From positions 1-56,296 of the IMG/VR virus record IMGVR_UViG_3300045912_000306: DNA of 56,296 nucleotides; one strand, 5' to 3'. The position numbers and the translations under genes are program-made. Origin of the DNA: a virus. Lineage: Duplodnaviria; Caudoviricetes. A model generated the notes under the pieces. That model worked only from the letters and a program-made list of their open reading frames with translations, did no database searches and was not told where the DNA came from. Of this stretch, positions 1 through 56,167 are shown piece by piece. Position 1 is the stretch's first letter. Each line of letters starts with the position of its first letter.

Positions 1-127
1 ATATTCAAGCGTGGAGACCCACGACTTCAGTCGTGTGGAGGAAACGCTTGACCTCCTAACTATTATATGATATAGTTTATCTATATGCAACTGTCTATTA
101 AAGTTAAGCTTATTCCCAACCAAGAGC
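1..127. repeat. Terminal direct repeat identical to 56170-56296 (circular closure, probably assembler overlap)
   Basis: Exact 127-nt match. It cuts through the IS left end and tnpB start, and 127 is a common assembler k-mer. Confidence 0.9.
48..76 (+). promoter_or_regulatory. Sigma70-type promoter of tnpB, near-leaderless
   Basis: TTGACC(48-53)-17 nt-TATAGT(71-76), with ATG 8 nt later. Confidence 0.65.
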
Positions 128-1203
128 AAAAGAACATTCTCCTGAAAACGATTGAGGCTTACAACGAAGCCTGCAACTTTGTTTCTCAAATAGCTTTTGA
201 GAATAAAACTGCTTCTGTGGTAAAAATCCACCATAAATGTTACTACGAAATCCGTAAAAGATTTAATCTTTCCTCTCAAATGGCAGTAAGAGTGGTGGGT
301 AAAGTTGCCGATACTTATAAAGTAGCGAGAAATAAAAAACTTCAACTTAAAAAACCTCATAAGTTTGACAAACACGGGGCAATTGTTTATGACCAGCGTA
401 TTTTTTCTTGGAAGGGACTTGAAAAGGTTTCTATTCTTACTTTGGAAGGTAGACAAGTTATTCCCATTGTTTTGGGAGAATATCAACAAATTAAACTTCA
501 ATTTCCCCGTAGAGGACAAGCATATCTTCTTTATCAGAATGGAAACTTTTACTTGATATCTATTGTAGATGTTCCAGAACCTCCAGAGAAAATATGTAAG
601 GATTTTCTTGGGGTTGATTTGGGAGTGGTTAATCTTGCTGTTGATAGCAAAGGGGAGTTTTATTCGGGAAAGGAGGTGGAAAAGAAAAGAATAAAACTTG
701 ATAAACTTAAATCTGCTTTGCAAAAATGTGGAAGTAAATCTGCTAAAAGACATCTTAAAAAATTGTCTGGTAAAGAAAAAAGATTTAGAAAAGATGTTAA
801 TCACTGTATTAGCAAGAAGATTGTTGAAAAGGCTAAAAGGAACTCTTTGAGTATTGCCATTGAAAACTTGACGGGGATACGACAAAGAGCAACCGTTAGA
901 AAAAGCCAACGGAGACAACATTTTTCTTGGGCTTTTAACCAGTTGAGAAGATTTTTGGAATACAAATCCAAACTTGCGGGGATTGTTTTGAAAACTGTTG
1001 ACCCGCACTATACTTCTCAAAAATGCTCTAATTGTGGTTATATTGCTAAACATAATCGTAAAAATCAATCAAACTTTTCTTGTAAGTCGTGTGGTTTCTC
1101 CGTCAACGCCGACTTAAACGGAGCGATTAATATCGCTCAACTGGCAACCGTCAACTTACCAATCGTAGCCCCCTCAAGGGGAGTTACAAGCCACCTGCTT
1201 TAG
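85..1203 (+). CDS. tnpB: RNA-guided endonuclease TnpB
   Basis: RuvC-I GVDLG, RuvC-II IAIENL, zinc ribbon CSNC..CKSC, RuvC-III NADLNGAINI; 372 aa. Confidence 0.95.
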   Translation: MQLSIKVKLIPNQEQKNILLKTIEAYNEACNFVSQIAFENKTASVVKIHHKCYYEIRKRFNLSSQMAVRVVGKVADTYKVARNKKLQLKKPHKFDKHGAIVYDQRIFSWKGLEKVSILTLEGRQVIPIVLGEYQQIKLQFPRRGQAYLLYQNGNFYLISIVDVPEPPEKICKDFLGVDLGVVNLAVDSKGEFYSGKEVEKKRIKLDKLKSALQKCGSKSAKRHLKKLSGKEKRFRKDVNHCISKKIVEKAKRNSLSIAIENLTGIRQRATVRKSQRRQHFSWAFNQLRRFLEYKSKLAGIVLKTVDPHYTSQKCSNCGYIAKHNRKNQSNFSCKSCGFSVNADLNGAINIAQLATVNLPIVAPSRGVTSHLL

Positions 1204-3128: not shown

Positions 3129-4349
3129 TTATATTAAATTAAATAAGAAAAACGGATTCTTTTCAAATAAAGTCGGATCAGCAACGTCTGTAAATGTAGG
3201 ATTAGTTGTTCCTGTAACGGTTCCTGAATGGTGGATTGCAATGCCTCCATTTCCACCATTGCCACCACCCCTGGTACCTAAATTATTTCCTCCTGTCCCA
3301 CCAAGTGCAGTAATTAGATTGCTTCCCAATGATGCTGTTCTACACACAATAAGACAAACACCTCCACCTCCGCCACCACCGCCTGGAGAATCACCTATTG
3401 CACCACCATTGCCACCATTTAGATTGATAGTTCCTGTAAATTCATAAGAGTTTACAAAAAATACGCCGACACCTCCGCCAGAACCACCTATCCCAACAGC
3501 ATTGGAATATATTACCTGACTTCCACCACCACCACCACCAAGTGTCATTGTTGTTAAATCGGCGGTGCTTATAGCGGAGCCACCTATTCCAGCAGGATTG
3601 ATACCACTCTTACCATTACTACCAGCATTTACACTACCACCACCACCGCCACCACCATAGTTTCCTGAGACATTTGGAGAACCCCCACCACCATTTCCGT
3701 TTGCGTTACTGTTTTCCTGTATTGCTCCCCCAGTTCCTTCTCCACATCTTGCTGGTTGGGTTAAGTGCTCTGATGGGTTATGACAAGATGAACCTGCACC
3801 ATGATCTTGATGGCAACCAGCACCTTTAAAGCCACAACCAGAATTATTATCTGGGACATCACAAGTACCATAACTACCATTTGCTCCCGCCAAATTGATT
3901 GATCCGCTTCCTCCAAAACTTCCTTTAATGGCAATAGGAAAAATTCCACCAACATCTCCATTCCACGCAGTTACATTCCAGGTTCCACTACAAGTTACAT
4001 TTTTGTATCTTGGAATTAAAACCGCTTGAGCTTGTGAAGCCCCAGAGTCGGTATAGGTATATTGAAGCGGTTTAAGAAGTGTAAGAGAGGTAGTGCCACC
4101 ACCTGATACAATCCTATTTACTTCCCATTGTCCAGCTCCAGTCCCTCTTGTTTGATGGACTAAGATAACATCTCCATTTGAAAACCCCGATGAACCTAAA
4201 GTTAAAGTAGTTGAGCTAGCACTCCCAGAGCAAGAGCGATAAGTTATTGTCGGAATAGACGATGAAGAATAATCCCCATCTTTTCCGTCGCCAAATGGCA
4301 TATTGGGGAAAATCCAATCTAATTTCTGCCAATCATACAATTGTGCCAT
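3129..4349 (-). CDS. Glycine-rich tail fibre/receptor-binding protein
   Basis: FGDGKDG start, long poly-Gly tracts, tail module position. Confidence 0.6.
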   Translation of the reverse strand: MAQLYDWQKLDWIFPNMPFGDGKDGDYSSSSIPTITYRSCSGSASSTTLTLGSSGFSNGDVILVHQTRGTGAGQWEVNRIVSGGGTTSLTLLKPLQYTYTDSGASQAQAVLIPRYKNVTCSGTWNVTAWNGDVGGIFPIAIKGSFGGSGSINLAGANGSYGTCDVPDNNSGCGFKGAGCHQDHGAGSSCHNPSEHLTQPARCGEGTGGAIQENSNANGNGGGGSPNVSGNYGGGGGGGSVNAGSNGKSGINPAGIGGSAISTADLTTMTLGGGGGGSQVIYSNAVGIGGSGGGVGVFFVNSYEFTGTINLNGGNGGAIGDSPGGGGGGGGVCLIVCRTASLGSNLITALGGTGGNNLGTRGGGNGGNGGIAIHHSGTVTGTTNPTFTDVADPTLFEKNPFFLFNLI

Positions 4350-4350
4350 A

Positions 4351-4896
4351 TTACAAATTCATAGCAATTACGAAACCGTCGTAAGTATTTGCTCCAGTGC
4401 AAATAAAACCAAACCAATCAGCCTTATTTGCTGTTGGTGTTAAAGTTGGAGCAACACCACCAGCCCATTTAATTGTAGAAAACCAAGTAACTGTTCTATT
4501 TCCACTAGCGTCTTGAATCAATTTTAATGCAAAAGCACTTCCAACTTGTGCATTTGATATGGTTAGTGTTCTATTTCCGCCTAGAGTTACTTGTTGTATA
4601 TGTCCCTGAGACAAATCAAATGTAATAGTCGCACCATCTGTCGCTGTTACTATATCTGTATATGGCTGAATTAATTTTGGTTTTGCGAGCGTTTTGTTGG
4701 TTACTGTTTTAGTATTTGTCGTTGTTAAAATATTGCTATCTAGCTTTGATGCTTCAATAGCGGCATCAGAAGCTATATTAGCATTTTTGATATTACCATT
4801 ATAATCATTGATTATATTGTTAAACTCAGCATTAAGATCTGCTGGAGTTAAAGTATCACCTGTGTTCCATATTTTTATTCTTGAAATTGTTGCCAT
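4351..4896 (-). CDS. Short tail fibre/adaptor protein
   Basis: LTPADLNAEFNNI anchor and IASDAAIEASKL motif; beta-rich C-terminus (WAGGVAPTLT) typical of phage fibres. Confidence 0.65.
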   Translation of the reverse strand: MATISRIKIWNTGDTLTPADLNAEFNNIINDYNGNIKNANIASDAAIEASKLDSNILTTTNTKTVTNKTLAKPKLIQPYTDIVTATDGATITFDLSQGHIQQVTLGGNRTLTISNAQVGSAFALKLIQDASGNRTVTWFSTIKWAGGVAPTLTPTANKADWFGFICTGANTYDGFVIAMNL

Positions 4897-16403: not shown

Positions 16404-16953
16404 TTAGCTGCGAATCTCTATACCAAAGTTAGACCTCAAATTCTTCACACCATAAATGACATCAACTACAACAAGAGTACCGAGATATTCAAGAATGTAT
16501 TCACTCTGAACTCTTGGCTTCTGTTGCATAGCCAATGCCAAAGCCTCTTTGTGAAAGAGCATGTTGTGATATTGGGTCGGTGTACCGGCAGTACTGGGAA
16601 CCTGGTTTGTGTAGTAAGCAGGAATACCCCAGAGCTCACCCCACAAAGAACTAGATTTTGGTCCAGCAGCTGCGGGTTTTGGACTTTGGTAGTTTCCGAG
16701 ATAGTCTGCTCTAACGAATTGGTCGATTTGAGCAATAGCCGTCTTTTGTTTGGGATGGAACACGAATGCTCTATCCTCAAGAGGGGCATTTGCCAAATCT
16801 AGAGCCTCTATAGCACTCAAGATTACAGGGCTTGTGACATTGGTACCATAGGTTCCAACATCAGCATTGCTGAATCCTGTATATAATGCCAAGATGTCCG
16901 AATCAACCGCTTGAGATATGGCATAACCAGCTTTGCTGGTATATTCTGCCATT
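16404..16953 (-). CDS. Major capsid protein, exon 2
   Basis: AGYAISQAVDSDIL, RAFVFHP, GELWGIP, FHKEALALAMQ and DVIYGVK are HK97-fold coat protein motifs. Confidence 0.9.
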
Positions 16954-17199
16954 CAATTTTGTTACTGCACCTAACAATTAAGTTGTTGGAGTGCGGGCTG
17001 GATATTTCTACCAGCCTCTGTACGTCACCGTACAGTTCCGACTATATCTTTACCCATAAAGGGTAGTCCGTACATAGTCTGTACACCTTCTATCTGAAAA
17101 GATAGCTCGGCTCGGTATTGTCTTGCAATTCTTGCAAGATGTCCACCGAATTCTCGGACTTTTTCAATTACCTTTCGGTAAAAGGACCCAATTTTGCTT
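16954..17199 (-). ncRNA. Group I self-splicing intron, 246 nt, no ORF
   Basis: P1 GACCU/GGGUC with U-G at the 5' splice site. P3 AGUCCG/CGGACU. P7 from CAGACUA and AAGAUAUAGUC. Terminal G. Splicing restores D-L-M-A. Confidence 0.93.
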
Positions 17200-17522
17200 A
17201 GGTCGTAATTTGACTGAACTTTTACGATATCTTCAACCAAGAAAGATGCTTCCTTGTGTTTATTGATATCAATAGTCGTTTCAGTCTCTGTTACAGCCTG
17301 CAGTGTTACCTGAGTGTTTGCGCTTTTGTCATTAGCAGTAAGATTGCTCAAGCTAGGAATGTGGATTGTATCACCACGTTCTTTCACAAGAGAATCATAC
17401 CTCTTTACAAGAGGAGCCATGACTAAGGCATCTTCGGTTGCTCGAAGAACCTCCATAGACCAGACATCAGGGATAAACTTAGCCGCAGTCGTGGTTGTAA
17501 TTTGATTTGTACCCAAAGCCAT
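17200..17522 (-). CDS. Major capsid protein, exon 1 (spliced product 290 aa)
   Basis: FIPDVWS, GDTIHIP and EDIVKVQSNYDL motifs. Confidence 0.9.
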
Positions 17523-18382: not shown

Positions 18383-18492
18383 TACCGAGAACGTACTGGG
18401 TTCAAGGTAAGGAAAAAGGTCCAAAGAGATATTGCCAATCCCAGCCTTTGGTAAGCAACAGGAGTGACCTTGAACCCAAAACGTTCCCGGTA
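18383..18492 (-). other. Long stem-loop in the scaffold/capsid leader
   Basis: TACCG-GAACGT-TGGGTTCAAGGT pairs with ACCTTGAACCCA-ACGTTC-CGGTA; inner CCAAAG/CTTTGG. Confidence 0.7.
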
Positions 18493-18544
18493 CGTAAATA
18501 TTAATATGTCAAATGCCCTAAGTTCCTAACTCAAAGGCATGCTA

Positions 18545-31732: not shown

Positions 31733-31767
31733 AAGGGCTATTTTCTCACCTCCTTTCTAAAAGCGGG

Positions 31768-31866
31768 TTTTAAGCCTGCTTCAGCGGTGGCAAGCGAGGT
31801 TCGGAAGCGGCAAGAGGAAAAACCTCTGCCAAGTAAACCCCTTGCCACCCCTGAAGATGGCCTAAA
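31768..31866 (-). other. Long rod-like intergenic stem-loop
   Basis: CTTCAG-GGTGGCAAG / CTTGCCACC-CTGAAG, with inner AGAGG/CCTCT. Confidence 0.7.
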
Positions 31867-31872
31867 CAAAAA

Positions 31873-33216
31873 TCAATCCCAAAATGTGCTAGTTTTGGTT
31901 TGTGCGTCTTTTGGTTCGTACTCCAAAAGACCTTCCCTTTCAAGCTCGTCCTGAGCTTTTAAAATATTTTCAAACAAGTCCTTATTTTTTTTCGACAAAA
32001 CCCAATCCCAGTCAAAACCCTGATCAAGCACGGCATCGGTAAAATTTTCCGATCCGAGCCCCTTAAAAATTTCGTCTTGCGTGGGGATGTAAATCTCCCT
32101 TCCGGTTAAACTTTTTCGGAATTTAAGAGCGTCCAAAATGCGCCTGACCTCCATCTGTAATCTTTCAATTTCTTTTGGGGTAATGCTGTCGTTTTCAAAT
32201 AAAATTTGATCTTGGATACTCTCCAACCGCATCAAAAGAAGCTCCGAAAGGTAACCACCCGGCTTCTTGATTGGAGATGTTTCGTCAAAATCAACCAGCT
32301 GTTTTTTTAGTGTTTCGACAACAAACTTGTCATTCTCTTTTTTCTCTACAACAATTGGTTTTTGTGGTAACACCGGCTCAACTTTTGTCTTTCCTACATT
32401 AAAGGTTTTTTCCTCGTCCCAGTTTTGCCAGCGGTAGACATAATAGGACGGCCTTTCAACTTCAAAGCCAACCCAACCACCCAAGCTCAATTTAAGTCCT
32501 GTGTTTTCTTCCATTTCTTTAAAAACAAAATCTTTTTTGTTTATTTGAGAAAAAAATAAATTATGAAAATAAAACTTATAATCAAACAAGGCTTCTTCCA
32601 AAATTGCCCTCGTCGAAGCCCAAAAAATAGTCCCTGTTGGTCTGTGGTAAGCTAGACAAATAGGATTGCCCGAAGAAAGCAAGTAAACATTGCCCGGTTC
32701 GTCCACCCTCAATAAAGCAATAGCCATACTTCCTCTCAATTTTTTAGCCGACGCCTTTATTGCGTTGATGGTTTTGAAATTCTTTTTGAAAATAAAATGC
32801 TCAACAAGTCGCAAAATGACTTCGGTATCCACTTCACCGTCGGTTTTTAAATTGAACTCTTCTTTCACTTCCCGATCGTTTGAAATAACGCCGTTATGAA
32901 CCAAAGCCAAACCCAACTTGCTGACTACGGGATGATTGTTTTTGTTGTTTTCCGCTCCACCTTGAGTCTTTGCCCTGTTGTGCCCAATTACTAAAGTTGG
33001 ATTGTTTTCCTTCAATAAAGTTTTGAAAACTTTTGTTTTGACAAAAACGCTAGCATCTACTGGCTCCTTGTAAAAAAGGATATCCCGATCCTTCACGAAA
33101 GCAAAGCCCGTAGCATCTCTGCCCCGCACCTGACTGGCGAGCAAAATTTTTATAAATTTTTCTTTTGCAAACTCGGAGTGCTCTCCCACTGTTAAAAATC
33201 CGCTAATTCCGCACAT
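31873..33216 (-). CDS. Class II (Ntn) glutamine amidotransferase
   Basis: MCGISG catalytic Cys2, RGRDATG, GHNR, NNHP, HNGVISN and VDTE motifs. Confidence 0.92.
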   Translation of the reverse strand: MCGISGFLTVGEHSEFAKEKFIKILLASQVRGRDATGFAFVKDRDILFYKEPVDASVFVKTKVFKTLLKENNPTLVIGHNRAKTQGGAENNKNNHPVVSKLGLALVHNGVISNDREVKEEFNLKTDGEVDTEVILRLVEHFIFKKNFKTINAIKASAKKLRGSMAIALLRVDEPGNVYLLSSGNPICLAYHRPTGTIFWASTRAILEEALFDYKFYFHNLFFSQINKKDFVFKEMEENTGLKLSLGGWVGFEVERPSYYVYRWQNWDEEKTFNVGKTKVEPVLPQKPIVVEKKENDKFVVETLKKQLVDFDETSPIKKPGGYLSELLLMRLESIQDQILFENDSITPKEIERLQMEVRRILDALKFRKSLTGREIYIPTQDEIFKGLGSENFTDAVLDQGFDWDWVLSKKNKDLFENILKAQDELEREGLLEYEPKDAQTKTSTFWD

Positions 33217-35112
33217 TTATTCCTCCCCTCCTTCCTCTTTGAAAATCTTTTCCCAATCCATGTAGTTAAAATCGTCTCCGTAGTTTGAAAATCTTTCGGC
33301 AACTTCCTTGCAAAGAGAGTAGAACTGATATACTAACTCATCGTCACTAACCTCTTTTAAGGGCAAAGCCAAACATTTTACAGACTCATATTCTCTTTTC
33401 GGCTTAGTATATTCTGATATTTGTCTAGCAACATCTTCTAACTTCCTTACGAATGACAATTTTTCATCAGAGGTAAAGCCAGCTTGTTCAAAAAGTAAAC
33501 CCAAAATTTGATAGTAAGTCATATTTAGATCTATTGGATCAGGTAGCTGAATTCCCCCTAAACTCTCCGGCAATTTCGTTACGGGCAAGCTAGCAGCTAT
33601 CTTTTTACATACTTTCATTGGCTTAAAAATAGACTCAAGAACATTTTTCTTTTTAATATAGATCTTTTTAATTTTTCCTCTGAATTCGATTTTTGAACTG
33701 TAAATCCTTTCATTATTGAGAATTGCAAAAATAGCCGTTGCAATTTCTAAAAACAAAATATTTTCCTCTCTAGCTCTCAACCCCAAACCCAAGCCACGAA
33801 AAGCACTTGTTAGCTTGTGTTCGACATTCTCAATTGGAGATTGATCGGTAAAACCTTTAGCAATTTCAAACAAAAGATCAATGAAGCGAACAGTCCCCCT
33901 ACCCCTGATGTTACTGTTACCCATCCAAATCACATTCCCCCGAACCTCTTTAAGGCCGTAAACATATACAACGTTGATAAAACCAGAAACCTGATCCAAA
34001 ATTTCCCTTGAGATTGCATTGAAAATTGCAAAATTTACATTTGTTTCAATTTCTGCGCAAGCAAAATCCCTGTAATTAGCCCTTACAAATTTCACGCTCG
34101 GTAGTTTGTATTTGCCACTAGCAACCAACTTACTGACTCCCTTTTTGTGAACCTCCAAAAGAATTTTTACAACTTTCATGACAAGTTTTTCAAATGTGTA
34201 AGCTCTCCAAAACTTGTTGGTGTCAAATTTAATATGCCAGCCTTTTTTAATTTCGATGGCAAAAAGGGGTCTTTCTCTTTTTACTTCCCGAATAAAATCT
34301 TCGATTGCTTTTTGATATCTTTCTTCCTCTTTTACTTTTGGCAATTCTCTTTGCTGAGCAAAAACAAATTTTAACTGCGGTCTGAGGAGCTCTCTTGATT
34401 GCCTCTCGAACGCATACCGAAAAGCGCTATCTTTGATGACTGGATTACACCTGTAATTATGATAAATGGTTGCATCGGCGATAGCGTGTGCTAAGTACAA
34501 AATATCCCTCGCCAATTTTTGGCAAGAAAGGAACGAGGGCAAAGTCCTATACTCGAACCCCCATCCTTGCAAGCGAACGTCACCCAACTTGCCATAGCCC
34601 CGAGAGACTTTTCTGAAAAATGCGTATTCGTCTTTTTCTAAAAACATAACAGGAAACCCTAGCAAATTGTCCAAATTCAATATCATTCTTTCAATCAATT
34701 CTCGGCCTCTAGGAGTGTTTTCCCTAAGTAAAGAGTGCCCGAAGTGTATGTGTCCCCCCAAAGAAAGTTTGTCGCTAGTAGCCATTAAATTGTACTTGAA
34801 GACATTGGGATACTTGTTTTTATTTCTTTCTAGTATTTCTCTAATGTTTTTGATGGCTTCCTCTGGGTCTGTTGCTGGCTTTGGTCTGATCTCTGCTGTT
34901 GCTGTGTAACCGTCAAAGCCAAAGTCGCAATCTTGAGACTGCGGGTAGACTTTTTCTCCCGAGTCATCGACTGGAGTAAAAACAGCGTCAGCCTCTAAAA
35001 ACGAATTGCTAATCGGAGAAAAGATGCCCAATTCTGGGTCTGATCCTATTGTGATTGGCTCTCTCTCTTCAACTTTTTGTGAAATGTTGTTTTCCTGTTG
35101 TGTATCTGGCAT
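33217..35112 (-). CDS. COOH-NH2 ligase type 2 (phiEco32-like amidoligase) with C-terminal extension
   Basis: IGSDPE, GFDG, EIRPKP, GGHIHFG, YGKLGDVR and FEYRTLPS motifs. Confidence 0.88.
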   Translation of the reverse strand: MPDTQQENNISQKVEEREPITIGSDPELGIFSPISNSFLEADAVFTPVDDSGEKVYPQSQDCDFGFDGYTATAEIRPKPATDPEEAIKNIREILERNKNKYPNVFKYNLMATSDKLSLGGHIHFGHSLLRENTPRGRELIERMILNLDNLLGFPVMFLEKDEYAFFRKVSRGYGKLGDVRLQGWGFEYRTLPSFLSCQKLARDILYLAHAIADATIYHNYRCNPVIKDSAFRYAFERQSRELLRPQLKFVFAQQRELPKVKEEERYQKAIEDFIREVKRERPLFAIEIKKGWHIKFDTNKFWRAYTFEKLVMKVVKILLEVHKKGVSKLVASGKYKLPSVKFVRANYRDFACAEIETNVNFAIFNAISREILDQVSGFINVVYVYGLKEVRGNVIWMGNSNIRGRGTVRFIDLLFEIAKGFTDQSPIENVEHKLTSAFRGLGLGLRAREENILFLEIATAIFAILNNERIYSSKIEFRGKIKKIYIKKKNVLESIFKPMKVCKKIAASLPVTKLPESLGGIQLPDPIDLNMTYYQILGLLFEQAGFTSDEKLSFVRKLEDVARQISEYTKPKREYESVKCLALPLKEVSDDELVYQFYSLCKEVAERFSNYGDDFNYMDWEKIFKEEGGEE

Positions 35113-39493: not shown

Positions 39494-39709
39494 TTATTTC
39501 CACATTTCAATCCAACCCGCTTCCATAATTAATCTTCCAATTTCTCTTACTACTTCGGGCTTTGAGTTCTTGAAAAGGAACCTATCGTGTCCATCTTTAG
39601 TTAACAAAGTAATTCCTTTCTCGCTTACTTTGGCGATGATTTTTAGTTTTTGATTTGAAATTTCGTATTGGGTATAAAGTTTTTTGATTTTCATTAATGA
39701 TTTTTTCAT
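39494..39709 (-). CDS. Hypothetical protein
   Basis: ATGA overlap. Confidence 0.55.
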   Translation of the reverse strand: MKKSLMKIKKLYTQYEISNQKLKIIAKVSEKGITLLTKDGHDRFLFKNSKPEVVREIGRLIMEAGWIEMWK

Positions 39710-39981
39710 AAGATTTTAGCAATTTCATTAACCAACTCAATGAACTTTTTCAATGTAATTTTCTCAATTATCTTTTTATTCATTAACTTTTGGACAATTT
39801 TGAATGCTTGCTCAATCTTACTGTCTTCTTTTACCCAATAAGTGTAATAAGTTGTTGGGTACCAACGCTCAACATACGGATAACACCAATTCCAGCCCGA
39901 ATAAGTTGTTGAGTCCAACTTATAATCAGTTAAAAATTTACCATTACTATATGATAAAGTTGTATTTTCGTTAAGTTCCAT
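39706..39981 (-). CDS. Hypothetical protein
   Basis: AAGGAGGTG SD before MELNE. Confidence 0.6.
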   Translation of the reverse strand: MELNENTTLSYSNGKFLTDYKLDSTTYSGWNWCYPYVERWYPTTYYTYWVKEDSKIEQAFKIVQKLMNKKIIEKITLKKFIELVNEIAKIL

Positions 39982-40015
39982 TATTATCACCTCCTTTGTT
40001 TTTTAACTTTCTCCA

Positions 40016-40180
40016 TTAAGGCGTTCTGGGGCAGAGCTGTATCGAGAGCAGTTGCGTCCATCTTACTCGATATGACCGCTTGGCGTTAGCCAAGCTTTCA
40101 GATGCCCCAATTTTAATGTCGTTGGTCACGCCACCGAACCAACCAAGAGAGGCTACCGCAACCTACCTCTCACGCCTCAA
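40016..40180 (-). ncRNA. Candidate structured RNA with kissing-loop pseudoknot
   Basis: GC-rich intergenic island with six nested stems and complementary loops GUUGCG/CGCAAC. Confidence 0.6.
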
Positions 40181-40228
40181 TCTGCAAGAACTTACAAACT
40201 GAAGCGTAGGGTGTAGATTTTTTGATTT

Positions 40229-40420
40229 TCATAAATTCCTTAATACCTTATCTGCAATTTCAAATGCATCTTTCATATTTTTGTATCTAATACAGCCCAT
40301 ACACTTTCCACACAACAATTTTCCAAAATCACAAAAGTTTTCTTGCCTAACAACACGGCGGACATCTTTAATCGCAACTGCCAAACAAATAATTTCTTTA
40401 TCAGTTAATTTCATTTTCAT
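40229..40420 (-). CDS. Cys-cluster mini-protein, paralog A
   Basis: C-x6-C-x2-C-x2-C motif. Confidence 0.6.
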   Translation of the reverse strand: MKMKLTDKEIICLAVAIKDVRRVVRQENFCDFGKLLCGKCMGCIRYKNMKDAFEIADKVLRNL

Positions 40421-40429
40421 CTTTTTTTA

Positions 40430-40648
40430 TTATATTCCAAAAAGTTTTTTCATTCTTTTGGGTAATAACTTTTTGGTGATTTTATATGCTTTTTTCAAAT
40501 TTTTATATTTAAGACAACCCTCGCATTTTCCACATCTTTCCATTCCCTTTTCACAAAAATCTTCTTGGTCAATGTAAAGGTAAATATCCACTATAGCCAA
40601 CAATGGGTAAATTATTTCTGTATCTAGTATTGTTTTTTTTGTTTTCAT
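40430..40648 (-). CDS. Cys-cluster mini-protein, paralog B
   Basis: Same motif and flanks as paralog A. Confidence 0.6.
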   Translation of the reverse strand: MKTKKTILDTEIIYPLLAIVDIYLYIDQEDFCEKGMERCGKCEGCLKYKNLKKAYKITKKLLPKRMKKLFGI

Positions 40649-42119: not shown

Positions 42120-42512
42120 CTATATGGTTTTGTTTCTTTGTCCGTCAATCGGTATCAAAATTACCTTATATTTTTTAATATGGACTTTTAGTTTTTTAAC
42201 ATCAGTTCCAGAAAAGACAGCGTCTTCTAATTCTTTTTTGTTTTTCCAAATTTCAACAATTATCTCTTCGTCATCTGATTTGCCATTTTTGTACCTGTCT
42301 AAATCTTCTTCTACGATGTATCCATCTATTTCTTTTTGGGTTTGTTGGTTTTTCATTACTTCTTCCAAAGTTTCTTGGTGGGTTTTATCCATAACATAAA
42401 ATACAAAAGACTTTATATCCGCAAGCGTTGCCTTCCTCATATCAAGTACTCCTGGTTCACGCCCTCCCTCCCATATTACTAGAGTTTCTTTATGCAACCC
42501 AATAGGTTTCAT
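42120..42512 (-). CDS. Hypothetical protein; start reassigned to MKPIG
   Basis: AAGGAG SD; the GTG extension lies in a structured RNA. Confidence 0.6.
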   Translation of the reverse strand: MKPIGLHKETLVIWEGGREPGVLDMRKATLADIKSFVFYVMDKTHQETLEEVMKNQQTQKEIDGYIVEEDLDRYKNGKSDDEEIIVEIWKNKKELEDAVFSGTDVKKLKVHIKKYKVILIPIDGQRNKTI

Positions 42513-42526
42513 TTTTTCAATCTCCT

Positions 42527-42643
42527 TGAAAACTTTGCGAGGCGTGCAGAGTAAATCCTCTGCTGTCGGCTTGGTTGCTTTCGCAATTGCCGTCTCGGAT
42601 GTTTCCACCCCAACATTTCTGTTGCCGCCTCACGAAATTTTCA
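42527..42643 (-). ncRNA. Candidate five-way-junction RNA with three GAAA tetraloops
   Basis: Closing stem with 17 of 18 positions paired, plus four internal hairpins. Confidence 0.7.
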
Positions 42644-43291
42644 AAGTCCTCTAAAATCCTTTACTTTTATTTTTGTTATAATTCTACACCCACCTCTATC
42701 TTTCAACTCACAAGTCGGTCTCAAAACTAACCCCTCCGCCTCCGCTGTCCCAAAAGCAGACTTAAAACCTTTCTTGACAATTTTTATGGCTTCTTCAATA
42801 GTCCCATAACCAACAACTGGACAAACCTTTATTCCCAGTTTGTTTCCAATGTCATAAACATTCTTTCTTTCAAGCCACCAATCACCAATTTTTACATCAA
42901 AAAGCACAAAATCAACATCATTCATTAGATAGTCTGTTCCAATCTTTCCTTGTATCTTAAAACCAAAGCCTTCACCATATAAAATAACATTTGTTTTTTC
43001 ATCTTTCTTATTAAAGATTTCTTTGAAAATTGTTTTTTGGGGTAAAAATATATCTTCAAGTTTCTTTGCCAAATGTGTAGGAATCTGAGCGTTGTCTGTC
43101 TTTCCGCCAAAAGATATATCATTTCCGTCAAACATTACTCTGATATTTGTTCCGTCTATCTTTTCTGTAAATTCCCATTGGTTATTTTGTAGATATTCAA
43201 ATGCAGGCTCAGACCACTCTCCAACAATGAATGGTGCACCTGGCTTACTCATATCTCTTTTGTAAATTGAATTTATTTTGTGATATTCCAT
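42641..43291 (-). CDS. ATP-dependent RNA ligase (Rnl2-like nucleotidyltransferase domain only)
   Basis: Motif I EKIDGTN, LYGEGFG, FVLFDV, EGLVLR and KIK. Confidence 0.85.
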   Translation of the reverse strand: MEYHKINSIYKRDMSKPGAPFIVGEWSEPAFEYLQNNQWEFTEKIDGTNIRVMFDGNDISFGGKTDNAQIPTHLAKKLEDIFLPQKTIFKEIFNKKDEKTNVILYGEGFGFKIQGKIGTDYLMNDVDFVLFDVKIGDWWLERKNVYDIGNKLGIKVCPVVGYGTIEEAIKIVKKGFKSAFGTAEAEGLVLRPTCELKDRGGCRIITKIKVKDFRGL

Positions 43292-43303
43292 ATTTTTGTC
43301 TCC

Positions 43304-43380
43304 TCAAGAGGCGGTTCGGAAGTCCTGCCTACAACCGAACGCCCCCACAACGGTTCAGATTTCTCCAAGCCGCCTCTTGA
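43304..43380 (-). ncRNA. Candidate rod-like RNA upstream of the RNA ligase gene
   Basis: Perfect 11-bp IR TCAAGAGGCGG/CCGCCTCTTGA with continued inner pairing. Confidence 0.6.
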
Positions 43381-43388
43381 AAAGACTT

Positions 43389-48216: not shown

Positions 48217-48267
48217 AACTTAATTAATATTATAACTTAATTAATATTAAAACTTAATTAATATCTT
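48217..48267. repeat. Three tandem 17-bp AT-rich repeats AACTTAATTAATAT(TAT/TAA/CTT)
   Basis: Copies at 48217, 48234 and 48251. Confidence 0.85.
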
Positions 48268-48271
48268 AACT

Positions 48272-48580
48272 GTTATCCCCGACGCCACAAGAATCCCCAT
48301 AATGGTAGTTTCATCTTGTTTTTTTTCGGTTTTCTCTCCGACAAGATTTAGCAAATCGGCTATCCCAAACTACTCCGAGACAGAGTAGAAGGGAGGAACC
48401 CCCGATGCGTAAGGTTTATCCTCGCACTTTATTGAGGTGTCGGGTCATCCCCGCTTGCCAGCTCCGAATGCAGTCGGACGTAGCTTCACCCCCTCACTTA
48501 CCGCTACTTTATTTTAAGTGGTTCGTTTCCACTACCCTGCGGCCCCGTGAGCAGTAATGGTGGGTGCAGATTTTACTGCT
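48272..48580 (-). ncRNA. Candidate large structured noncoding element
   Basis: GC-rich, no long ORF, many hairpins within a GGUAGU/ACUACC closing pair. Confidence 0.45.
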
Positions 48581-48740
48581 ATTTGAAAAAAGACGTGTAA
48601 TCAATTTTAGCTGATGTTTCTTGCTTAGACGCTAACAAATACGCTGAAGTGAAAAAAACGCTTCTAGTTTCGTTTGGTGAAGCCAAAAACAAAATATTTT
48701 TGCCACCTGTTGGAGTAGAAATAAACATTACCTTTTCCAT
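48579..48740 (-). CDS. Small near-leaderless ORF (MEKVMFIST...), not in ORF track
   Basis: 53 aa, 8 nt after a TTGACA-17-TATCAT promoter. Confidence 0.35.
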   Translation of the reverse strand: MEKVMFISTPTGGKNILFLASPNETRSVFFTSAYLLASKQETSAKIDYTSFFK

Positions 48741-49942: not shown

Positions 49943-52900
49943 TTATCTTTGTGTGCTAAATTTTTCAAATGGTAAAATATTTTTCAGCGGATTATCTTCC
50001 TTTTTCCTAAATGTAAATGTATTTTGTATCACTTTTTTCAATATATCTGGAACATCGTCGTTTAGAGAAGCTTGATTAGAAAAATATAATCCAGTTCTTA
50101 GTTGTACAATTTCCTGTCTTTTTTTGTTTCTCTGTTCAACCAAAAATGATATTTTTCTTTTTTTCTCCTCTATTGTATCATTAGAAGACATAACTTGCTT
50201 AATCTTAAAAGTAATATCATCTATTTCCTTCTCCTTACTTCTTATTTTGCCAAGCACCACATTTTCTCCGCCCGAATAAGCTGGCATGCCCAAACTTCTT
50301 GCAATGGCAACGCCCTTAGACGGTGGTTGTTTTATTGGATATCCAGTTTTTTCGCCAGAAAAAGCTTTTGCAATTCTTTCTGCGGCAGTTATTGAACCAG
50401 GACCAAGTTGCTTTGCCATATATTCAAGAATCTTCTTCGCCTTATCTGGGTCATAATCTCCGTCGTATATTTTCTTTGCCGTAAATGGATCGTAGTTATT
50501 TACAATATTTTGATATACCTGCAAAAATGGCTGTCCACCAGTAAATAGATTTTGTGCCTGATTAAAATCTATAAATGTCCAAGTCAGCGGTTTTTCTGGG
50601 TCTGGCAAAGAAAATGGCAATATGTAAGCAAACGACATATAAATTGGATTTCCGTTGCTGTCTAATACTGGCAATACCGTTGCTGTTTGTTTATTCTTCT
50701 GAACCCATTCTGGCATGTTTGCTTCGTATTGATTATCTGTCATATTTAGCATAACTTTCCCAAACTCCCTTACAGCTTTTAATGCAAGGAAAATTGTCAA
50801 ATAAACCCACGGTCTAGTAACAAGAACCTCCAATACTCTGGGTATCATTAAATAGAGGAAGGAAATAAAAGGAGAAATAACACCACCAACACCTTTTCTA
50901 AAAGCGTCAATAATAAGAGGAACAATTTTGTAATTAAGTTCCCACTTGTTTGCAAATTCGATTGCTTGCTCTGGTGTTAGCCCATTTCTAATTGCACACT
51001 CAGCAAGATATGTTCTTGCAATGTGGTCAATTTGCCCATAATACTGGATAATCACACTTTCCTTTATGTTCTGTCTTGTTATTTCCCGATTGTTTAATCC
51101 AAGCTTTTTCTCAACAATTTCGCCAAATTTTTTCATTGGATTGGAGGCTTTTTCAACAGATTCCATTTCTTTTGTGTTTATTTCAACATTAAAATAATCT
51201 GATCCATACAAGCCCCTATCTCTCCAAAATTTATATCTTTGCCCTTTGGTGATATAATCCTTTACGCTACCAACATATACATGTGTATTTTCTGGGTGCC
51301 ACACAGGAAAACCAGCCATATATGTTTGAATATAATGACCAGATATCCAGTTTCTAATACCAGTGTCGAGAGACAAAGATGTTTTAGATATTTTCCACCA
51401 ACTAATAATTTCACCAAAGAAATTGTTTATCCACGTGTCCTTGCCATACTTAACCATCGCAGTCAAATCTTGTTCTAATCCAGGGTGGACCCAACCACCT
51501 TTTAACGGACCAAGATCCTTGTTATACCCCTTAGAAACAATATCAGATACTGGAATAAATCCTTCTTTTTCTTCTTTAGAAAATAGTTCTGGGTTTTCTC
51601 TTATATTTCTAAGGTACACAAGTGTTGTGTAATTGTGTATTAATGACTTAAGCGTTCTGTCTAATACAGCGTCTGCTTGAGTAACCCAACCAGCCTCCTT
51701 CTTGGCAGCAAGACCAATTTCTTTCAAATCTTCATCTGACACCTTAATTACTGAACCACTATCAACAAGCTTCTTTGCATTCTTAATAATTTTCTTGGCA
51801 ATATTTGTTGGGCTTGCAAGATATATTTCAGTCCCCAAAGTTCTAGTAGATTTCATTTCTATTAGTGGCTTAAGTTTTTCTTGAGACAATATAAAATTCT
51901 CGAAAACATCAACTGCTGTTGGGGCAAGCTGTTTTGCCAATTCTCTGTCTGTCACATAAAGAGAAACAAATTCTGCAACTTGTTCGCCTCTTTTACGAAC
52001 ATATTTTTTATAACTTGGCGTTGGACTTTCGCCTAAAATAGTTTCTGCTTTACTGTATCTTAGATCCGAAACAGCTCTCAACTCATGTTTAATTGAAACT
52101 CTCTGCCTGTAGTTTTCATTTTCAAAAAACAATTTCTTCAAGTCGTACGAATAATCTATTGCGTGTCCAGCTTCGTGGGACAAAACCTTTTCGTCGTCTC
52201 CAATTATTGTCTCTATCTTATTTTCTCCCCCTAAATAATGTCCAAGTTTTTTACCCCTTAACGACAAAACCCTCCCTCTTTCTACCCCGAGAGAATCAAT
52301 AAGGTTATTTAATTGTTTCCTTAAGACCTCGTCTATAGTAACCTTTATTTTTACTTTTGGAACAGATAGATTTTTAAGAAGCGTCTGCTCATCAATACTA
52401 GCCAAATCTGTGATAGTATATTTCCCCTTCAATTGTTTGGTAATCTTTTCTGGAAATCCAAGTGCTTCCACATTTCTGTCCTCTACCTGACCATCATGGC
52501 TTAAAGCCTCGAGACCCCATTCTTCAAGCGTAAGTTTTTTCTTAAAAATGCTTGTTGACAACCTATTGGGAGAAAACCCTGCTGGTTGGCTAATAATCGG
52601 TTTTCCTTCTTTATCAATGCCATTAATATAAAATGAGCGTGTATATCTTCCAACAGTAGTTTTTGCTAAATCGACAGACCATTTTGCATCCTGTGGAGAT
52701 ATATATCCCTGTTCAACCTGATACTGGAACTCTCTCCCAATTGCAAGACTGTATTTACTTATTTCTGCACCAATATCTATCACTCTACCACGATATTTTT
52801 CTGTTACTGGAATATAACCGCTAAGCATTTCTATAAGTTTCTCGCTTTCTTCAGAAGACAATTTTCTAAGTGGTTTAATGTAATCTTCCTGCGCTCTTTG

Positions 52901-55900
52901 ATACATACCGTCAGCAATTCTCACTTTTTCTTTTAATAACCTAAATGCAACCTCAGGTCTTCCTTCTTGCGGGGTTATTTTTTTAATTATTGGGGCATTA
53001 CTAATTAATTGGACAATCCCGTCCCAAAGCTGGTATGCTTTCTTAGAGTAAATATTGTTATACACAAATGTGTTGGGACGCACCTCTTTCCCGATATACA
53101 TTTCTGGTACATATCTATTTTCTGCCTCTTTAAGTATCTCTTTTTGTAATTCATCTAGTTCTGGTTTACCCGTTGGTGGCGGGTCTCCTGCACGTCCGCC
53201 AGTTGTTGTTATAAATTGATCATTTTGTCCAGTTTTGAAGTTTACTGGATTTGTTGAAAGATTTGATAATTCTCTTAGTGTACCAACAAAATCTCCCTTG
53301 TCGTACGATACAGTTGAATCTGGGTCAACTCCTTTATTTATTAAAGCGTTTGCTACTTTTGAACCAATATTTCTCCAGTCTATTTCACTTAACTTTCCAG
53401 ATTCTCTCAGGAATTTATTTTCATCATAACTAATTTTGAAAATTGGAACTTCTCTGGCGTGTCCAATTACCAACACACGCGCATTCTCTGGAGATGTAGC
53501 TTTTCGATATTCGCTAGCTTTGACTTGTCTTACATCTCCACTATCAACGTTAACAACAGCGGCAGATTGATATGAATAATCAAAACCTTTATCTGTTATA
53601 AAAGTAGGTCTTTGAGCAAAATTACTACTAGAGACTGACACGACAGGTGTTTTCTTTTCTCTTCTGGCTCTAAATTTGGGTGGAGTTGAAGATATTTCTT
53701 CCATTAACATTTGCATAAATTCGTTTTCAGTCATTCCCAAAGCAGAAGCAACCTCATCAGAAGAGATTCCGAATTTGCTCGCTGGTATGTGTTCACGATA
53801 TAGTTCTCCAGTTTTTTTCGACCTAACATCTGCGTTTCTTCTCAGAAAACTCTTAAATTTATTAATGACTTTTAGCTCTTTTGCGCTTCCAGGATTAACA
53901 AGGTGCGAAGCCCATTTTTCTTCCCCCACCGCTTTTCTGGCTTCATTCAAAAGCTCATTTTGTTCATTCAAAAACTCATCTTGAGCATTACTTACTTCTT
54001 CGACAAGATCCTCAAATGGTGGTCTAAGTTCTTTTGGTATAACTTCATATAAAGCTTTAGCGGCATCAACATCTTCAACAAATAAAGCACCTCTAACTTC
54101 GTCTAAAATTGCGTCAACGTCTTTTTTGGTGTATTGAAAACTTTCCGTTGGTGCTTTTATGTCGGCTAAATCCTTTGAAGTTACCTGTTCAACATTCCCA
54201 TAAAAAGATTTATCAGGTTCATTTTTAAGTTCTTTAGGAATAGATACTTCTGTGGGTTTAGTTGGTGGTTGATTGAAATTTCTGGCAGTTTGATAGATTT
54301 TAGAGAGCGTCTCCTTGTCTGTTAAAGGATATTTTGTTTTATTGGCAATCAACCATTGTGCAATGTCAGAGGTTAAATTATCGTGTGAAGAAGTGTGTCC
54401 TAATCCACGACCATTTTGTAACTCAATGTAATGAGCTAGTTCATGGGAAAAACTTTCTATATCTCCAAGTCCGTTATCATAAACAATTATTTTTCTTGGG
54501 GTTTCTTTTGCTTCTTTGCCACCATTACTAACTTTTGCAGTAACAAGAGATGCTTTCCCTCCACCCCGACTAAGTGGTTCTGTGCTTATTACAACTGGTA
54601 TTTTAGGAACACCCCAAGTCTTACTAACCTCATCCATTATGTTGTTGTATTGTTCTAAAAGAGTGTCTCTAATAAAACCATTAGTACCAACGCCCTGCTT
54701 AATTATCTTTTGAGCATATTTAAATTCTTTGGGATATTGTTGAGCTATTTGTGGTAAATCTTTTGCAATATCAACACCAGCTGTTTGCTGTGTTGTCGTT
54801 TGTATTGGTGTTTGTTGACCCATTTGAGTTTGGTTTGGCTGGGTGACTTGTTGTCCCTCTAAGTTTCCGAGCGGCGTCCCCTCAAGACCACTGCCTGTTC
54901 CACTAGGAAGATTAGCTCTTGCCTGTTCTATTTTGTTTTGCACTACTCTGCTGATCTCTGATTGTGGATTAAATTCTGGCGGTAATGTTGTTTGTTCTCT
55001 AACATTTGTTTGCGGTTGATTTACTTTAACAATAGCACCATCACCGGGCTTGGTCTCTGGCTGTTTTTTCCACAAGTTTTTAATCCAGTTTTTAAGATTA
55101 TCAAAAGAAGTTAATATACCAGAAGGCGGTTCGGCGGAAGTAACTTTTCTAAAATCTTCCATAAAAGATTTGAATTCGTCTGGATTACCACCCTTATCTG
55201 GGTGAAGTCTTTTAACCACATCGGCAAATTTAGATCTAAGGATTTCAGGGCTTTCATAGTCTTTTAATTCAAAACCATACTTTTTCAATCTATTTCTTGC
55301 AAATGCAAGTTCTGTTGTTGGAACACCATTTAGCGGAGTTGGTCTTGTGCTAAGTGCGCCCAAAAATGCACTTGTAGCAAACGTTTCTGCTGTGTTTCTG
55401 GGAGTTATTTCTTCTCCTGACATCTTTTTAAGAGCGGTGTTAATTGCTGTCCAAAGCGTTCCGAACGAGACAGCGTTTTTAGCAATATCCTGAGGTGATG
55501 CTCCGATTGGAAGCCTAAATGGTATTTGTCCGCTCATCAATCCACGCATAAACATTGCATTCAAAACAGACGAAACATCACTTGATACAGCTCTACCAAC
55601 ACGCCCGCCTTTCCACGATTCTGGTTGGAAAAATTCTTTTATTTTTAGCGGAGTTTCTTCTTCGCCTGGTTTTAATTCTCCAGAACCAAAGAATCCTTTT
55701 TGTGTCATTATTGCTACCTTTTTATCTTTACTAACTGGAATAGCCAATTCAGCATTACCAACACTTTCTGCTAATTTTCCTAGACCAAGCACATCTTTAT
55801 AGAAGCGAGTTGTTTCTTCCTGTTTTTTCTTTATAGTATTTTTATAAGAATCAATGAAGTTTTCTGTATTTTTTATTGCTGGTCCTAAAATATATTTTTC

Positions 55901-56167
55901 AATTAAACTTTGCTTGGGTTTGTTTTCTTGTGTTTGAAATAAATTGGTATTACTTTTTAATTGAGCAGATGGTTCGCTTACATTATTGTTGGAAATATCT
56001 ACACCCAATCTTTTCAGAGAAACCAGTTCTTTGGGTGTGGTTGTGGGATCTTCTATTTTGCTTTTAGCCCAATCATCAAACGTGAGGATACCCGATTTTT
56101 TATTATCAGTTTGAATACTATTCCCATTTTGACTTTTTAACCAATCTGAAAATTTTAGTACTGTCAT
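49943..56167 (-). CDS. Large polyvalent internal virion protein (J-domain, two HExxH motifs, LPD38-like C-terminus)
   Basis: 2074 aa; LHPDKGG, HELAH, HEAGH, PFISFLY and NYDPFTAKKIY motifs. Confidence 0.75.
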   Translation of the reverse strand: MTVLKFSDWLKSQNGNSIQTDNKKSGILTFDDWAKSKIEDPTTTPKELVSLKRLGVDISNNNVSEPSAQLKSNTNLFQTQENKPKQSLIEKYILGPAIKNTENFIDSYKNTIKKKQEETTRFYKDVLGLGKLAESVGNAELAIPVSKDKKVAIMTQKGFFGSGELKPGEEETPLKIKEFFQPESWKGGRVGRAVSSDVSSVLNAMFMRGLMSGQIPFRLPIGASPQDIAKNAVSFGTLWTAINTALKKMSGEEITPRNTAETFATSAFLGALSTRPTPLNGVPTTELAFARNRLKKYGFELKDYESPEILRSKFADVVKRLHPDKGGNPDEFKSFMEDFRKVTSAEPPSGILTSFDNLKNWIKNLWKKQPETKPGDGAIVKVNQPQTNVREQTTLPPEFNPQSEISRVVQNKIEQARANLPSGTGSGLEGTPLGNLEGQQVTQPNQTQMGQQTPIQTTTQQTAGVDIAKDLPQIAQQYPKEFKYAQKIIKQGVGTNGFIRDTLLEQYNNIMDEVSKTWGVPKIPVVISTEPLSRGGGKASLVTAKVSNGGKEAKETPRKIIVYDNGLGDIESFSHELAHYIELQNGRGLGHTSSHDNLTSDIAQWLIANKTKYPLTDKETLSKIYQTARNFNQPPTKPTEVSIPKELKNEPDKSFYGNVEQVTSKDLADIKAPTESFQYTKKDVDAILDEVRGALFVEDVDAAKALYEVIPKELRPPFEDLVEEVSNAQDEFLNEQNELLNEARKAVGEEKWASHLVNPGSAKELKVINKFKSFLRRNADVRSKKTGELYREHIPASKFGISSDEVASALGMTENEFMQMLMEEISSTPPKFRARREKKTPVVSVSSSNFAQRPTFITDKGFDYSYQSAAVVNVDSGDVRQVKASEYRKATSPENARVLVIGHAREVPIFKISYDENKFLRESGKLSEIDWRNIGSKVANALINKGVDPDSTVSYDKGDFVGTLRELSNLSTNPVNFKTGQNDQFITTTGGRAGDPPPTGKPELDELQKEILKEAENRYVPEMYIGKEVRPNTFVYNNIYSKKAYQLWDGIVQLISNAPIIKKITPQEGRPEVAFRLLKEKVRIADGMYQRAQEDYIKPLRKLSSEESEKLIEMLSGYIPVTEKYRGRVIDIGAEISKYSLAIGREFQYQVEQGYISPQDAKWSVDLAKTTVGRYTRSFYINGIDKEGKPIISQPAGFSPNRLSTSIFKKKLTLEEWGLEALSHDGQVEDRNVEALGFPEKITKQLKGKYTITDLASIDEQTLLKNLSVPKVKIKVTIDEVLRKQLNNLIDSLGVERGRVLSLRGKKLGHYLGGENKIETIIGDDEKVLSHEAGHAIDYSYDLKKLFFENENYRQRVSIKHELRAVSDLRYSKAETILGESPTPSYKKYVRKRGEQVAEFVSLYVTDRELAKQLAPTAVDVFENFILSQEKLKPLIEMKSTRTLGTEIYLASPTNIAKKIIKNAKKLVDSGSVIKVSDEDLKEIGLAAKKEAGWVTQADAVLDRTLKSLIHNYTTLVYLRNIRENPELFSKEEKEGFIPVSDIVSKGYNKDLGPLKGGWVHPGLEQDLTAMVKYGKDTWINNFFGEIISWWKISKTSLSLDTGIRNWISGHYIQTYMAGFPVWHPENTHVYVGSVKDYITKGQRYKFWRDRGLYGSDYFNVEINTKEMESVEKASNPMKKFGEIVEKKLGLNNREITRQNIKESVIIQYYGQIDHIARTYLAECAIRNGLTPEQAIEFANKWELNYKIVPLIIDAFRKGVGGVISPFISFLYLMIPRVLEVLVTRPWVYLTIFLALKAVREFGKVMLNMTDNQYEANMPEWVQKNKQTATVLPVLDSNGNPIYMSFAYILPFSLPDPEKPLTWTFIDFNQAQNLFTGGQPFLQVYQNIVNNYDPFTAKKIYDGDYDPDKAKKILEYMAKQLGPGSITAAERIAKAFSGEKTGYPIKQPPSKGVAIARSLGMPAYSGGENVVLGKIRSKEKEIDDITFKIKQVMSSNDTIEEKKRKISFLVEQRNKKRQEIVQLRTGLYFSNQASLNDDVPDILKKVIQNTFTFRKKEDNPLKNILPFEKFSTQR

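Follow-up and report, generated by a model that had tools for sequence, protein, structure and literature searches.

RNase III signals of the T7 type are intercistronic hairpins of about 50-60 nt, in which an upper and a lower stem are arranged around an internal loop. Mutually exclusive helices are found in phage leaders such as those of lambda cIII or N, and in P1-switching riboswitches; the lysine and purine riboswitch aptamers are P1-closed junctions with a loop-loop kiss. Loops that pair between molecules are found in the pRNA of phi29-like phages, which are small and have a packaging motor that uses this RNA rather than a classical terminase.

How does the locus described here compare with these systems? 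It is carried by a virus record of 56,296 bp, which was analysed in full and is referred to below as the window. The element (40016-40180, minus strand) is a real, non-coding, strongly structured RNA-level feature. Its compact fold comprises a closing stem (P1), two hairpins (H1 and H2) and a three-way junction. It is overlapped at its 5' end by a further hairpin, hairpin A (40160-40219, minus strand), and the P1/H1 state and hairpin A are mutually exclusive. The leader is novel in its sequence and architecture, but the general kind to which it belongs is already known.

Hairpin A resembles the RNase III signals of the T7 early mRNA (R1.1) in being intercistronic, in its length of about 60 nt, in having two stems and an internal loop, and in its location in a polycistronic early region. 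It shows the T7-type architecture (7 bp, internal loop, 17 bp; z -6.41) and likewise follows a stop codon and precedes the next Shine-Dalgarno (SD) sequence. There is no sequence similarity between the two, and the T7 signals lack a downstream multi-branched domain (P1, H1, H2 and three-way junction) that shares an arm with the hairpin. As in the lambda cIII and N leaders and the P1-switching riboswitches, one strand, UUGAGGCGU, has two alternative partners, and an anti-SD-like sequence, GCCUCU, pairs with the SD in one state and is sequestered in H1 in the other. In contrast to these leaders, the helix that competes is on the 5' side of the structured domain, the SD pairing does not stand out statistically, and no family is matched.

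With the lysine and purine riboswitches the element has in common a P1-closed multi-helix junction and two distal loops that are complementary over 6 bp. However, the helices come in a different order, the element lacks the conserved cores, Rfam gives no match to it at E<=10, and it is an orphan. The phi29 pRNA is similarly a phage-encoded RNA of comparable size with two mutually complementary loops, but the present phage has a 56.3-kb genome with a conventional large terminase and a portal, the RNA has no Rfam match, and it is a leader inside an operon. The size of the genome and the presence of the large terminase and portal genes speak against a packaging motor of the phi29 pRNA type, while the complementary loops could pair either within or between molecules.

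The phage and the genes around the element

The record has a GC content of 35.8% and a terminal repeat of 127 bp, and is a complete tailed-phage genome. Nearly all of its ORFs are carried by the minus strand. They encode a large terminase (phrog_2, 4.9e-45), a portal (1.5e-31), a major head protein and a tail protein, as well as C5 and N6/N4 DNA methylases and an RNA ligase, the gene for which lies 2.5 kb upstream of the element. The terminase has less than 31% identity to any of 50,697 GenBank phage records. The sequencing runs in which the stretch is found are labelled as hot-spring or microbial-mat metagenomes, and none of them is listed as an RNA data set; both of the runs that contain it in full may be the source of the record itself. 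In two other runs the phage is represented by short contigs of low depth; these give one listed difference, T>C at 40111, and no other population variant was seen. Since this position corresponds to RNA position 70, in an unpaired linker, the variant is uninformative on pairing.

A phiEco32-type COOH-NH2 ligase gene adjoins a glutamine amidotransferase gene (window 31873-35112, minus strand), and the pair is possibly involved in base or protein modification. A protein of 2074 aa (window 49943-56167, minus strand) has no Pfam or PHROG match. The gene for the major head protein is divided by a group I intron (window 17018-17209, minus strand; Rfam 68.6 bits, E 2.4e-15) into two ORFs, 17025-17522 and 16404-16952. 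The two halves of the head gene are contiguous in a related contig, L033 (3030-3899), which is therefore without the intron.

Among the few plus-strand genes is a TnpB/Cas12f-like transposase (window 85-1203). A GC-rich stretch at its 3' end (1081-1220) could encode a guide (omega) RNA. The protein is 82% identical to a TnpB on a 6.8-kb contig from a Candidatus Shapirobacteria metagenome-assembled genome (MAG), although the flanks of the two genes are not shared. Because of this identity, the host of the phage may be a CPR (Microgenomates-type) bacterium, for which the TnpB match is a weak hint.

The element lies within an operon-like run of minus-strand genes, starting 49 nt after a stop codon and ending 35 nt before an SD and ATG; the compact 165-nt RNA of the first-pass annotation is not supported as a free-standing unit. 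No promoter-like or terminator-like site flanks the element on its own strand, and no convincing recurrent promoter-like 10-mer was found in the intergenic regions of the genome. Upstream is a 63-aa ORF (40229-40420, minus strand) with Cys-X2-Cys motifs, the stop codon of which is 10 nt before hairpin A. It is in tandem with a 72-aa paralogue (40430-40648, minus strand), with which it has a C-x-GKC-x-GC-x-YKN motif in common. The 63-aa protein has no homologue except itself in a collection of 5.8 billion proteins.

Downstream is a 91-aa ORF (39706-39981, minus strand), the likely regulated gene. Its strong SD, AAGGAGGUGA (39987-39996, minus strand), is 7 nt before the ATG at 39979-39981. Pairing of the SD with the upstream anti-SD has an energy of -11.3 kcal/mol, which ranks 10th among the 22 genes scored in the same way. 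SD sequestration is therefore without statistical support, and as a special feature of this leader it was rejected as unremarkable.

What is the product of the 91-aa ORF? The protein has no match in PHROG or Pfam, and its AlphaFold model (pLDDT 72.9) has no fold match in the PDB (Foldseek, E<=0.001). It has five close homologues (P0002-P0006, 57-80% identity), encoded on contigs of 1-4 kb, and one partial homologue. Neither the 91-aa nor the 63-aa protein has close relatives in the IMG/VR viral contigs, and a tblastn search of the phage records with the 91-aa protein was negative. A family alignment search found distant homologues with 35-63% identity at 23 loci (20 metagenomic and three viral). 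The comparison of leaders covered these 23 distant loci; in all of them the gene is packed against upstream ORFs, with no GC island and no leader of this sort.

Compact fold and competing hairpin

What does the element look like on its own? All of the helices and both of the complementary loops in the first-pass annotation were recovered at the same positions of the minus strand, and the MFE and centroid structures of the isolated 165-nt RNA are exactly the fold that had been drawn (-67.8 kcal/mol, z -4.36; none of 200 shuffles as good). The element is an island of 53% GC in a background of about 30-36%, and no minus-strand ORF of at least 40 aa runs across it. Among 1021 sampled windows of 165 nt on the minus strand of the genome it has the lowest energy, at -64.2 versus a mean of -29.3 (sd 8.9).

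The closing stem P1 consists of a 5' strand, UUGAGGCGU (40172-40180), and a 3' strand, ACGCCUUAA (40016-40024), which form nine pairs including one G-U; in hairpin A the 5' strand is paired instead with 40200-40208. P1 was recovered also as inverted repeat I4. The probability of such a stem arising by chance is 3e-4 if the gap to each of the two adjacent helices must be 0-3 nt, and rises to 7e-3 when the 5' partner is free within 110 nt. H1 (GAGAGGU/GCCUCUC, 40147-40171) has an 11-nt loop, L1 (AGGUUGCGGUA), which includes GUUGCG at 40157-40162. Taken alone H1 is weak (-8.7 kcal/mol, z -1.99), and its 3' strand, GCCUCU, is the anti-SD-like sequence.

The remainder of the element is the same in both folds and extends from 40027 to 40143. 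It consists of H2 (GUUGGUU/GACCAAC, 40121-40143), which is lengthened by two pairs up to a GUGG loop, and of the three-way-junction domain (40027-40109). Here, P4 (UGGGGCA/UGCCCCA) encloses both P5/P5a (GCUUGGC-UAAC-GCCAAGC, 40073-40100), which is interrupted by two A/G mismatches and capped by a UAAC loop, and P6 (UAUCGAG/CUCGAUA, 40040-40072), with a 19-nt loop, L6. The three-way junction alone has an energy of -36.5 kcal/mol and a z of -5.21; together with H2 the z is -4.69.

L1 and L6 are the only two large loops of the compact fold. CGCAAC in L6 (40051-40056) is the exact complement of GUUGCG in L1, and the two are the proposed kissing pair. The claim that the loops match exactly is borne out, with six Watson-Crick pairs and one flanking G-U, and the L1-L6 duplex has a calculated energy of -10.1 kcal/mol. 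In 200,000 random trials with loops of these sizes, at least six Watson-Crick pairs were found in 1.3-1.6%. The complementarity is thus suggestive of a kiss (p about 0.015).

Which strand is the functional one? The minus strand had been preferred because G-U pairs were said to favour it. This argument is thin, since only three of the 52 pairs are G-U and the plus strand of the same 165 nt also folds well (-56.8, z -3.84). Better grounds for choosing the minus strand are the orientation of the genes and hairpin A, which is strand-specific and was absent from the original model. Hairpin A comprises 25 bp in 60 nt: a lower stem of 7 bp (AAUCUAC/GUAGGUU), an internal loop, and an upper helix of 17 bp, UACGCUUCAGUUUGUAA/UUGCAGAUUGAGGCGUG, with five G-U pairs and a GUUC loop. 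On the minus strand it has an energy of -30.2 kcal/mol and a z of -6.41, and none of 200 shuffles is as good. The same region of the plus strand reaches only -14.4 (z -2.33), and the five G-U pairs would become C-A mismatches there. Hairpin A is therefore an RNA-level feature of the transcribed strand.

Hairpin A overlaps RNA positions 1-21, which hold the 5' strands of P1 and H1 and half of L1. In its natural context the compact fold is no longer preferred, and P1 and H1 give way to hairpin A. When the element is folded with its natural flanks (39975-40235, 261 nt), the MFE structure (-88.6 kcal/mol, z -4.49) contains hairpin A and lacks both P1 and H1. In the context ensemble at 37 to 75 C the pair probability of P1 is about 0 and that of H1 about 0.06-0.08. 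In the context MFE, the GCCUCU freed from H1 (40148-40153) pairs with GGAGGU of the SD (39989-39994). The loss of P1 is a property of the native flank: with shuffled or foreign upstream flanks of 55 nt, P1 was kept in the MFE in 142/150 and 141/150 trials, respectively.

The exchange of partners by UUGAGGCGU is nearly symmetrical, with ACGCUUCAG upstream or ACGCCUUAA downstream. Forcing the compact fold in context costs 5-7 kcal/mol between 37 and 75 C, a figure that excludes the kissing energy, because the nearest-neighbour model gives no credit for the L1-L6 kiss (about -10 kcal/mol). The two states are therefore plausibly close in energy. Competition between two individually improbable structures for a single strand is what marks a switch or a refolding that depends on processing. 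That the leader would act as a switch is suggested by the calculated thermodynamics of one sequence.

Known families and homologues

Does the element belong to a known RNA family? According to the first-pass annotation it matched no tRNA, riboswitch or ribozyme, and the Rfam and ARAGORN scans agree. At the Rfam 15 gathering thresholds the whole window, scanned on its two strands, returned only Intron_gpI, the group I intron at 17018-17209, and a scan of 39800-40400 at E<=10 gave only a snoRNA-like chance match of 19 nt outside the element. None of the ribozyme, pRNA, Y RNA, 6S or riboswitch families in Rfam matches the element, and ARAGORN found no tRNA or tmRNA genes in the window. A search of the literature, as far as titles and the openings of abstracts go, found no description of such an element.

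Searches for relatives by sequence gave a similar result. A blastn search in 'distant' mode with 39900-40300 had no match among the 50,697 phage records, and an exact 26-nt pattern had none in the IMG/VR viral contigs. In the same contigs a pattern of the two loops, with a gap of 85-115 nt, occurred at 44 loci, which is about the number expected by chance, and none of these passed the covariance model. Blastn and nhmmer searches of 29 loci gave only chance matches, including a match in L002/L003 that lies inside a terminase gene. There is no synteny around the element at 29 loci with RNA-ligase relatives or at 14 loci with relatives of the portal.

The covariance model R1, which was built on a single sequence and with strict filters detects only fairly close relatives, had no true match over 111 fetched loci (29 + 34 + 48) and none in 10 whole virus records. 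With filters off, it found only the element itself in the window and no paralogue. About 300 Patescibacteria genomes were scanned with R1 in all. There were no matches in the Candidatus Shapirobacteria MAG, in eight genomes of its order, or in 151 genomes of its phylum. The 151 genomes of its class yielded one match (E 0.11), which falls within a 614-aa ORF of the other strand and was therefore rejected as a chance match. In the collections searched the element thus appears to be an orphan.

Explanations of the leader and its sister leaders

What might the leader do? The best reading is that the element is an intercistronic leader with two states, which acts in cis for the 91-aa ORF through processing, stability or translation; belief and doubt in it are about evenly matched. 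The analysis shows the structures with their statistics, and shows that they are strand-specific and exclude each other; the processing, the switching and any effect on expression are what we infer. The leader would sit in an early-gene run of the 56-kb tailed phage, with H2 and the three-way junction (40027-40143) as a constant core and the remainder as a two-state module. In state one, UUGAGGCGU-GAGAGG would be held in the 25-bp upstream hairpin A (40160-40219). In state two the same strand would pair downstream to give P1 and H1, and thus the compact 165-nt fold, to which L1 and L6 could add a 6-bp kiss.

Hairpin A would be the first to fold during transcription. Cleavage at hairpin A, or strand exchange aided by the L1-L6 kiss, would then alter the 5' structure of the downstream message, as the downstream part refolds into the compact P1/H1/kiss form or into the SD-paired form. 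Such an altered 5' structure may change the stability of the message of the 91-aa ORF, the access of ribosomes to it and its translation. The existence of sister leaders in the genome points to a conserved habit of the lineage and therefore gives a higher prior to a functional, cis-acting role of 40016-40219. Counting against this reading are the absence of a leader from the distant homologues of the 91-aa gene, the weakness of H1, the unremarkable SD:anti-SD energy and the orphan status of the element. The core of H2 and three-way junction also counts against it, being more elaborate than a processing site or a stabiliser needs. Since simple processing or stability leaves this core unexplained, more novel readings are kept alive.

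Could the element instead act in trans? A stand-alone small RNA of about 165 nt, cut from the early transcript and serving as a decoy, a scaffold or a tRNA-shaped mimic, is unlikely, if still a serious candidate. The same grade applies to its variant in which L1-L6 would lock an L-shaped compact fold, or join copies into dimers or rings like those of phi29 pRNA. Such an RNA would account for the closed architecture, with four arms and the 5' and 3' ends held in a 9-bp stem, and for the exact complementarity of the only two large loops. The compact fold is both the MFE and the centroid in isolation, with a P1 that is improbable by chance; a simple leader would not need so elaborate a core, and the RNA ligase gene lies 2.5 kb upstream. 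However, in the natural transcript context hairpin A outcompetes P1 and H1, no promoter-like or terminator-like site accompanies the element on its strand, and an SD and ATG are only 35 nt away. No pRNA, Y RNA, tRNA-like or other Rfam family is matched, and packaging of the pRNA type is not expected because a conventional large terminase is present.

Is it necessary to assume a dedicated function at all? The stretch might be a GC-rich remnant of a degraded gene or a mobile insert with fortuitous stems, or it might be a DNA-level signal. The sequence is an orphan, both of the neighbouring small genes are poorly conserved, and the plus strand likewise folds better than its shuffles. This explanation is nevertheless doubtful. 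It requires that several improbable features coincide, namely three sub-structures with z between -4.4 and -6.4, a P1 with a chance probability of 3e-4 to 7e-3, and a loop match seen in about 1.5% of trials. Hairpin A, being rich in G-U pairs, works on the transcribed strand only, no minus-strand ORF of at least 40 aa crosses the element, no similarity to the phage database was found, and one of the sister leaders is retained in related contigs, where its closing stem shows compensatory changes.

A new riboswitch for a metabolite or an ion, with H2, the three-way junction and the L1-L6 kiss as the aptamer, seems improbable. In this equally improbable mechanism, ligand binding would shift the balance from hairpin A towards P1 and H1, which would expose the SD of the 91-aa ORF. 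The position as a 5' leader, the P1-closed multi-helix junction, and the long-range loop-loop contact of the purine and lysine riboswitch kind all fit this idea. There are also clear mutually exclusive structures that involve P1, and in the alternative state the 3' strand of H1 is able to pair with the SD. As a rule, riboswitch classes occur widely; the element, by contrast, is an orphan with no match in the 111 loci, the 10 virus records or the about 300 Patescibacteria genomes. Expression platforms do not usually have their competing helix upstream of the aptamer, the SD:anti-SD pairing does not stand out (rank 10/22), and no terminator is present. Moreover, the candidate regulated gene encodes a small phage protein without a metabolic link, and its distant homologues lack the leader. 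A new self-cleaving ribozyme is scarcely credible: only the compact, pseudoknot-capable architecture and the phage setting, with a group I intron in the same genome, speak for it, against the lack of any Rfam ribozyme match even at E<=10, of a repeated or circular-replicon context, of a recognisable conserved core, and of homologues in which invariant nucleotides might be seen.

What would follow if the cis-acting, two-state leader were confirmed? The lineage of this phage, hardly any relatives of which have been characterised, would gain an elaborate RNA-level control or processing element. This lineage possibly infects CPR bacteria, the gene regulation of which is essentially unknown. There is a slight chance that the element is the first of a new bistable class, possibly from a phage of CPR (Microgenomates-like) bacteria: either a junction, locked by the 6-bp kiss, that senses a ligand or a protein and controls an early gene by toggling against the upstream hairpin, or a processed small RNA whose copies associate by way of the complementary loops. 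At present, the element is a well-supported structure without homologues, which makes it a reasonable candidate for probing and not yet a discovery.

The structured leader at 40016-40219 is the most branched of several in the genome. GC-rich, strongly folding leaders are found directly before an SD and start codon at four further minus-strand positions: 18384-18500, 31733-31872, 42520-42645 and 43292-43388. The first of these, a long irregular hairpin, precedes the SD of a 269-aa gene that is located upstream of the head gene. The hairpin has been conserved in the related contigs L033 (about 2100-2215) and L031 (about 4285-4377), and its closing stem shows compensatory changes, with GGGAACGU/ACGUUCUC in one version and GGGAGUCU/AGUCUCCC in the other. 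The occurrence of several such leaders, one of them with compensatory changes, suggests that structured intercistronic RNAs may be general in the organisation of expression in this phage.

The leader at 42520-42645, just after the RNA ligase gene, is a closed structure of four hairpins, including some with GAAA loops, and has the closing stem GUGAGGCG/CGCCUCGC. It was considered as a paralogue of the element because of a similar GAGGCG/CGCCUC closing stem, but this was unsupported by the R1 model. A 162-aa ORF near this leader probably starts later than predicted, at an ATG after the SD AAGGAG near 42512. The leaders at 31733-31872 and 43292-43388 are intergenic, with a GC of 0.50-0.52, and form long hairpins before the SD and ATG. 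Of these two, the leader upstream of the RNA ligase gene has its SD region paired in a duplex of -22 kcal/mol. Elsewhere on the minus strand, a non-coding, GC-rich stretch of about 260 nt (48320-48585; -87.2 kcal/mol, z -2.32) has no Rfam match and is followed by three tandem copies of ATATTAATTAAGTT (about 48217-48264). The stretch and its repeats may represent a further RNA, an origin or a promoter region.
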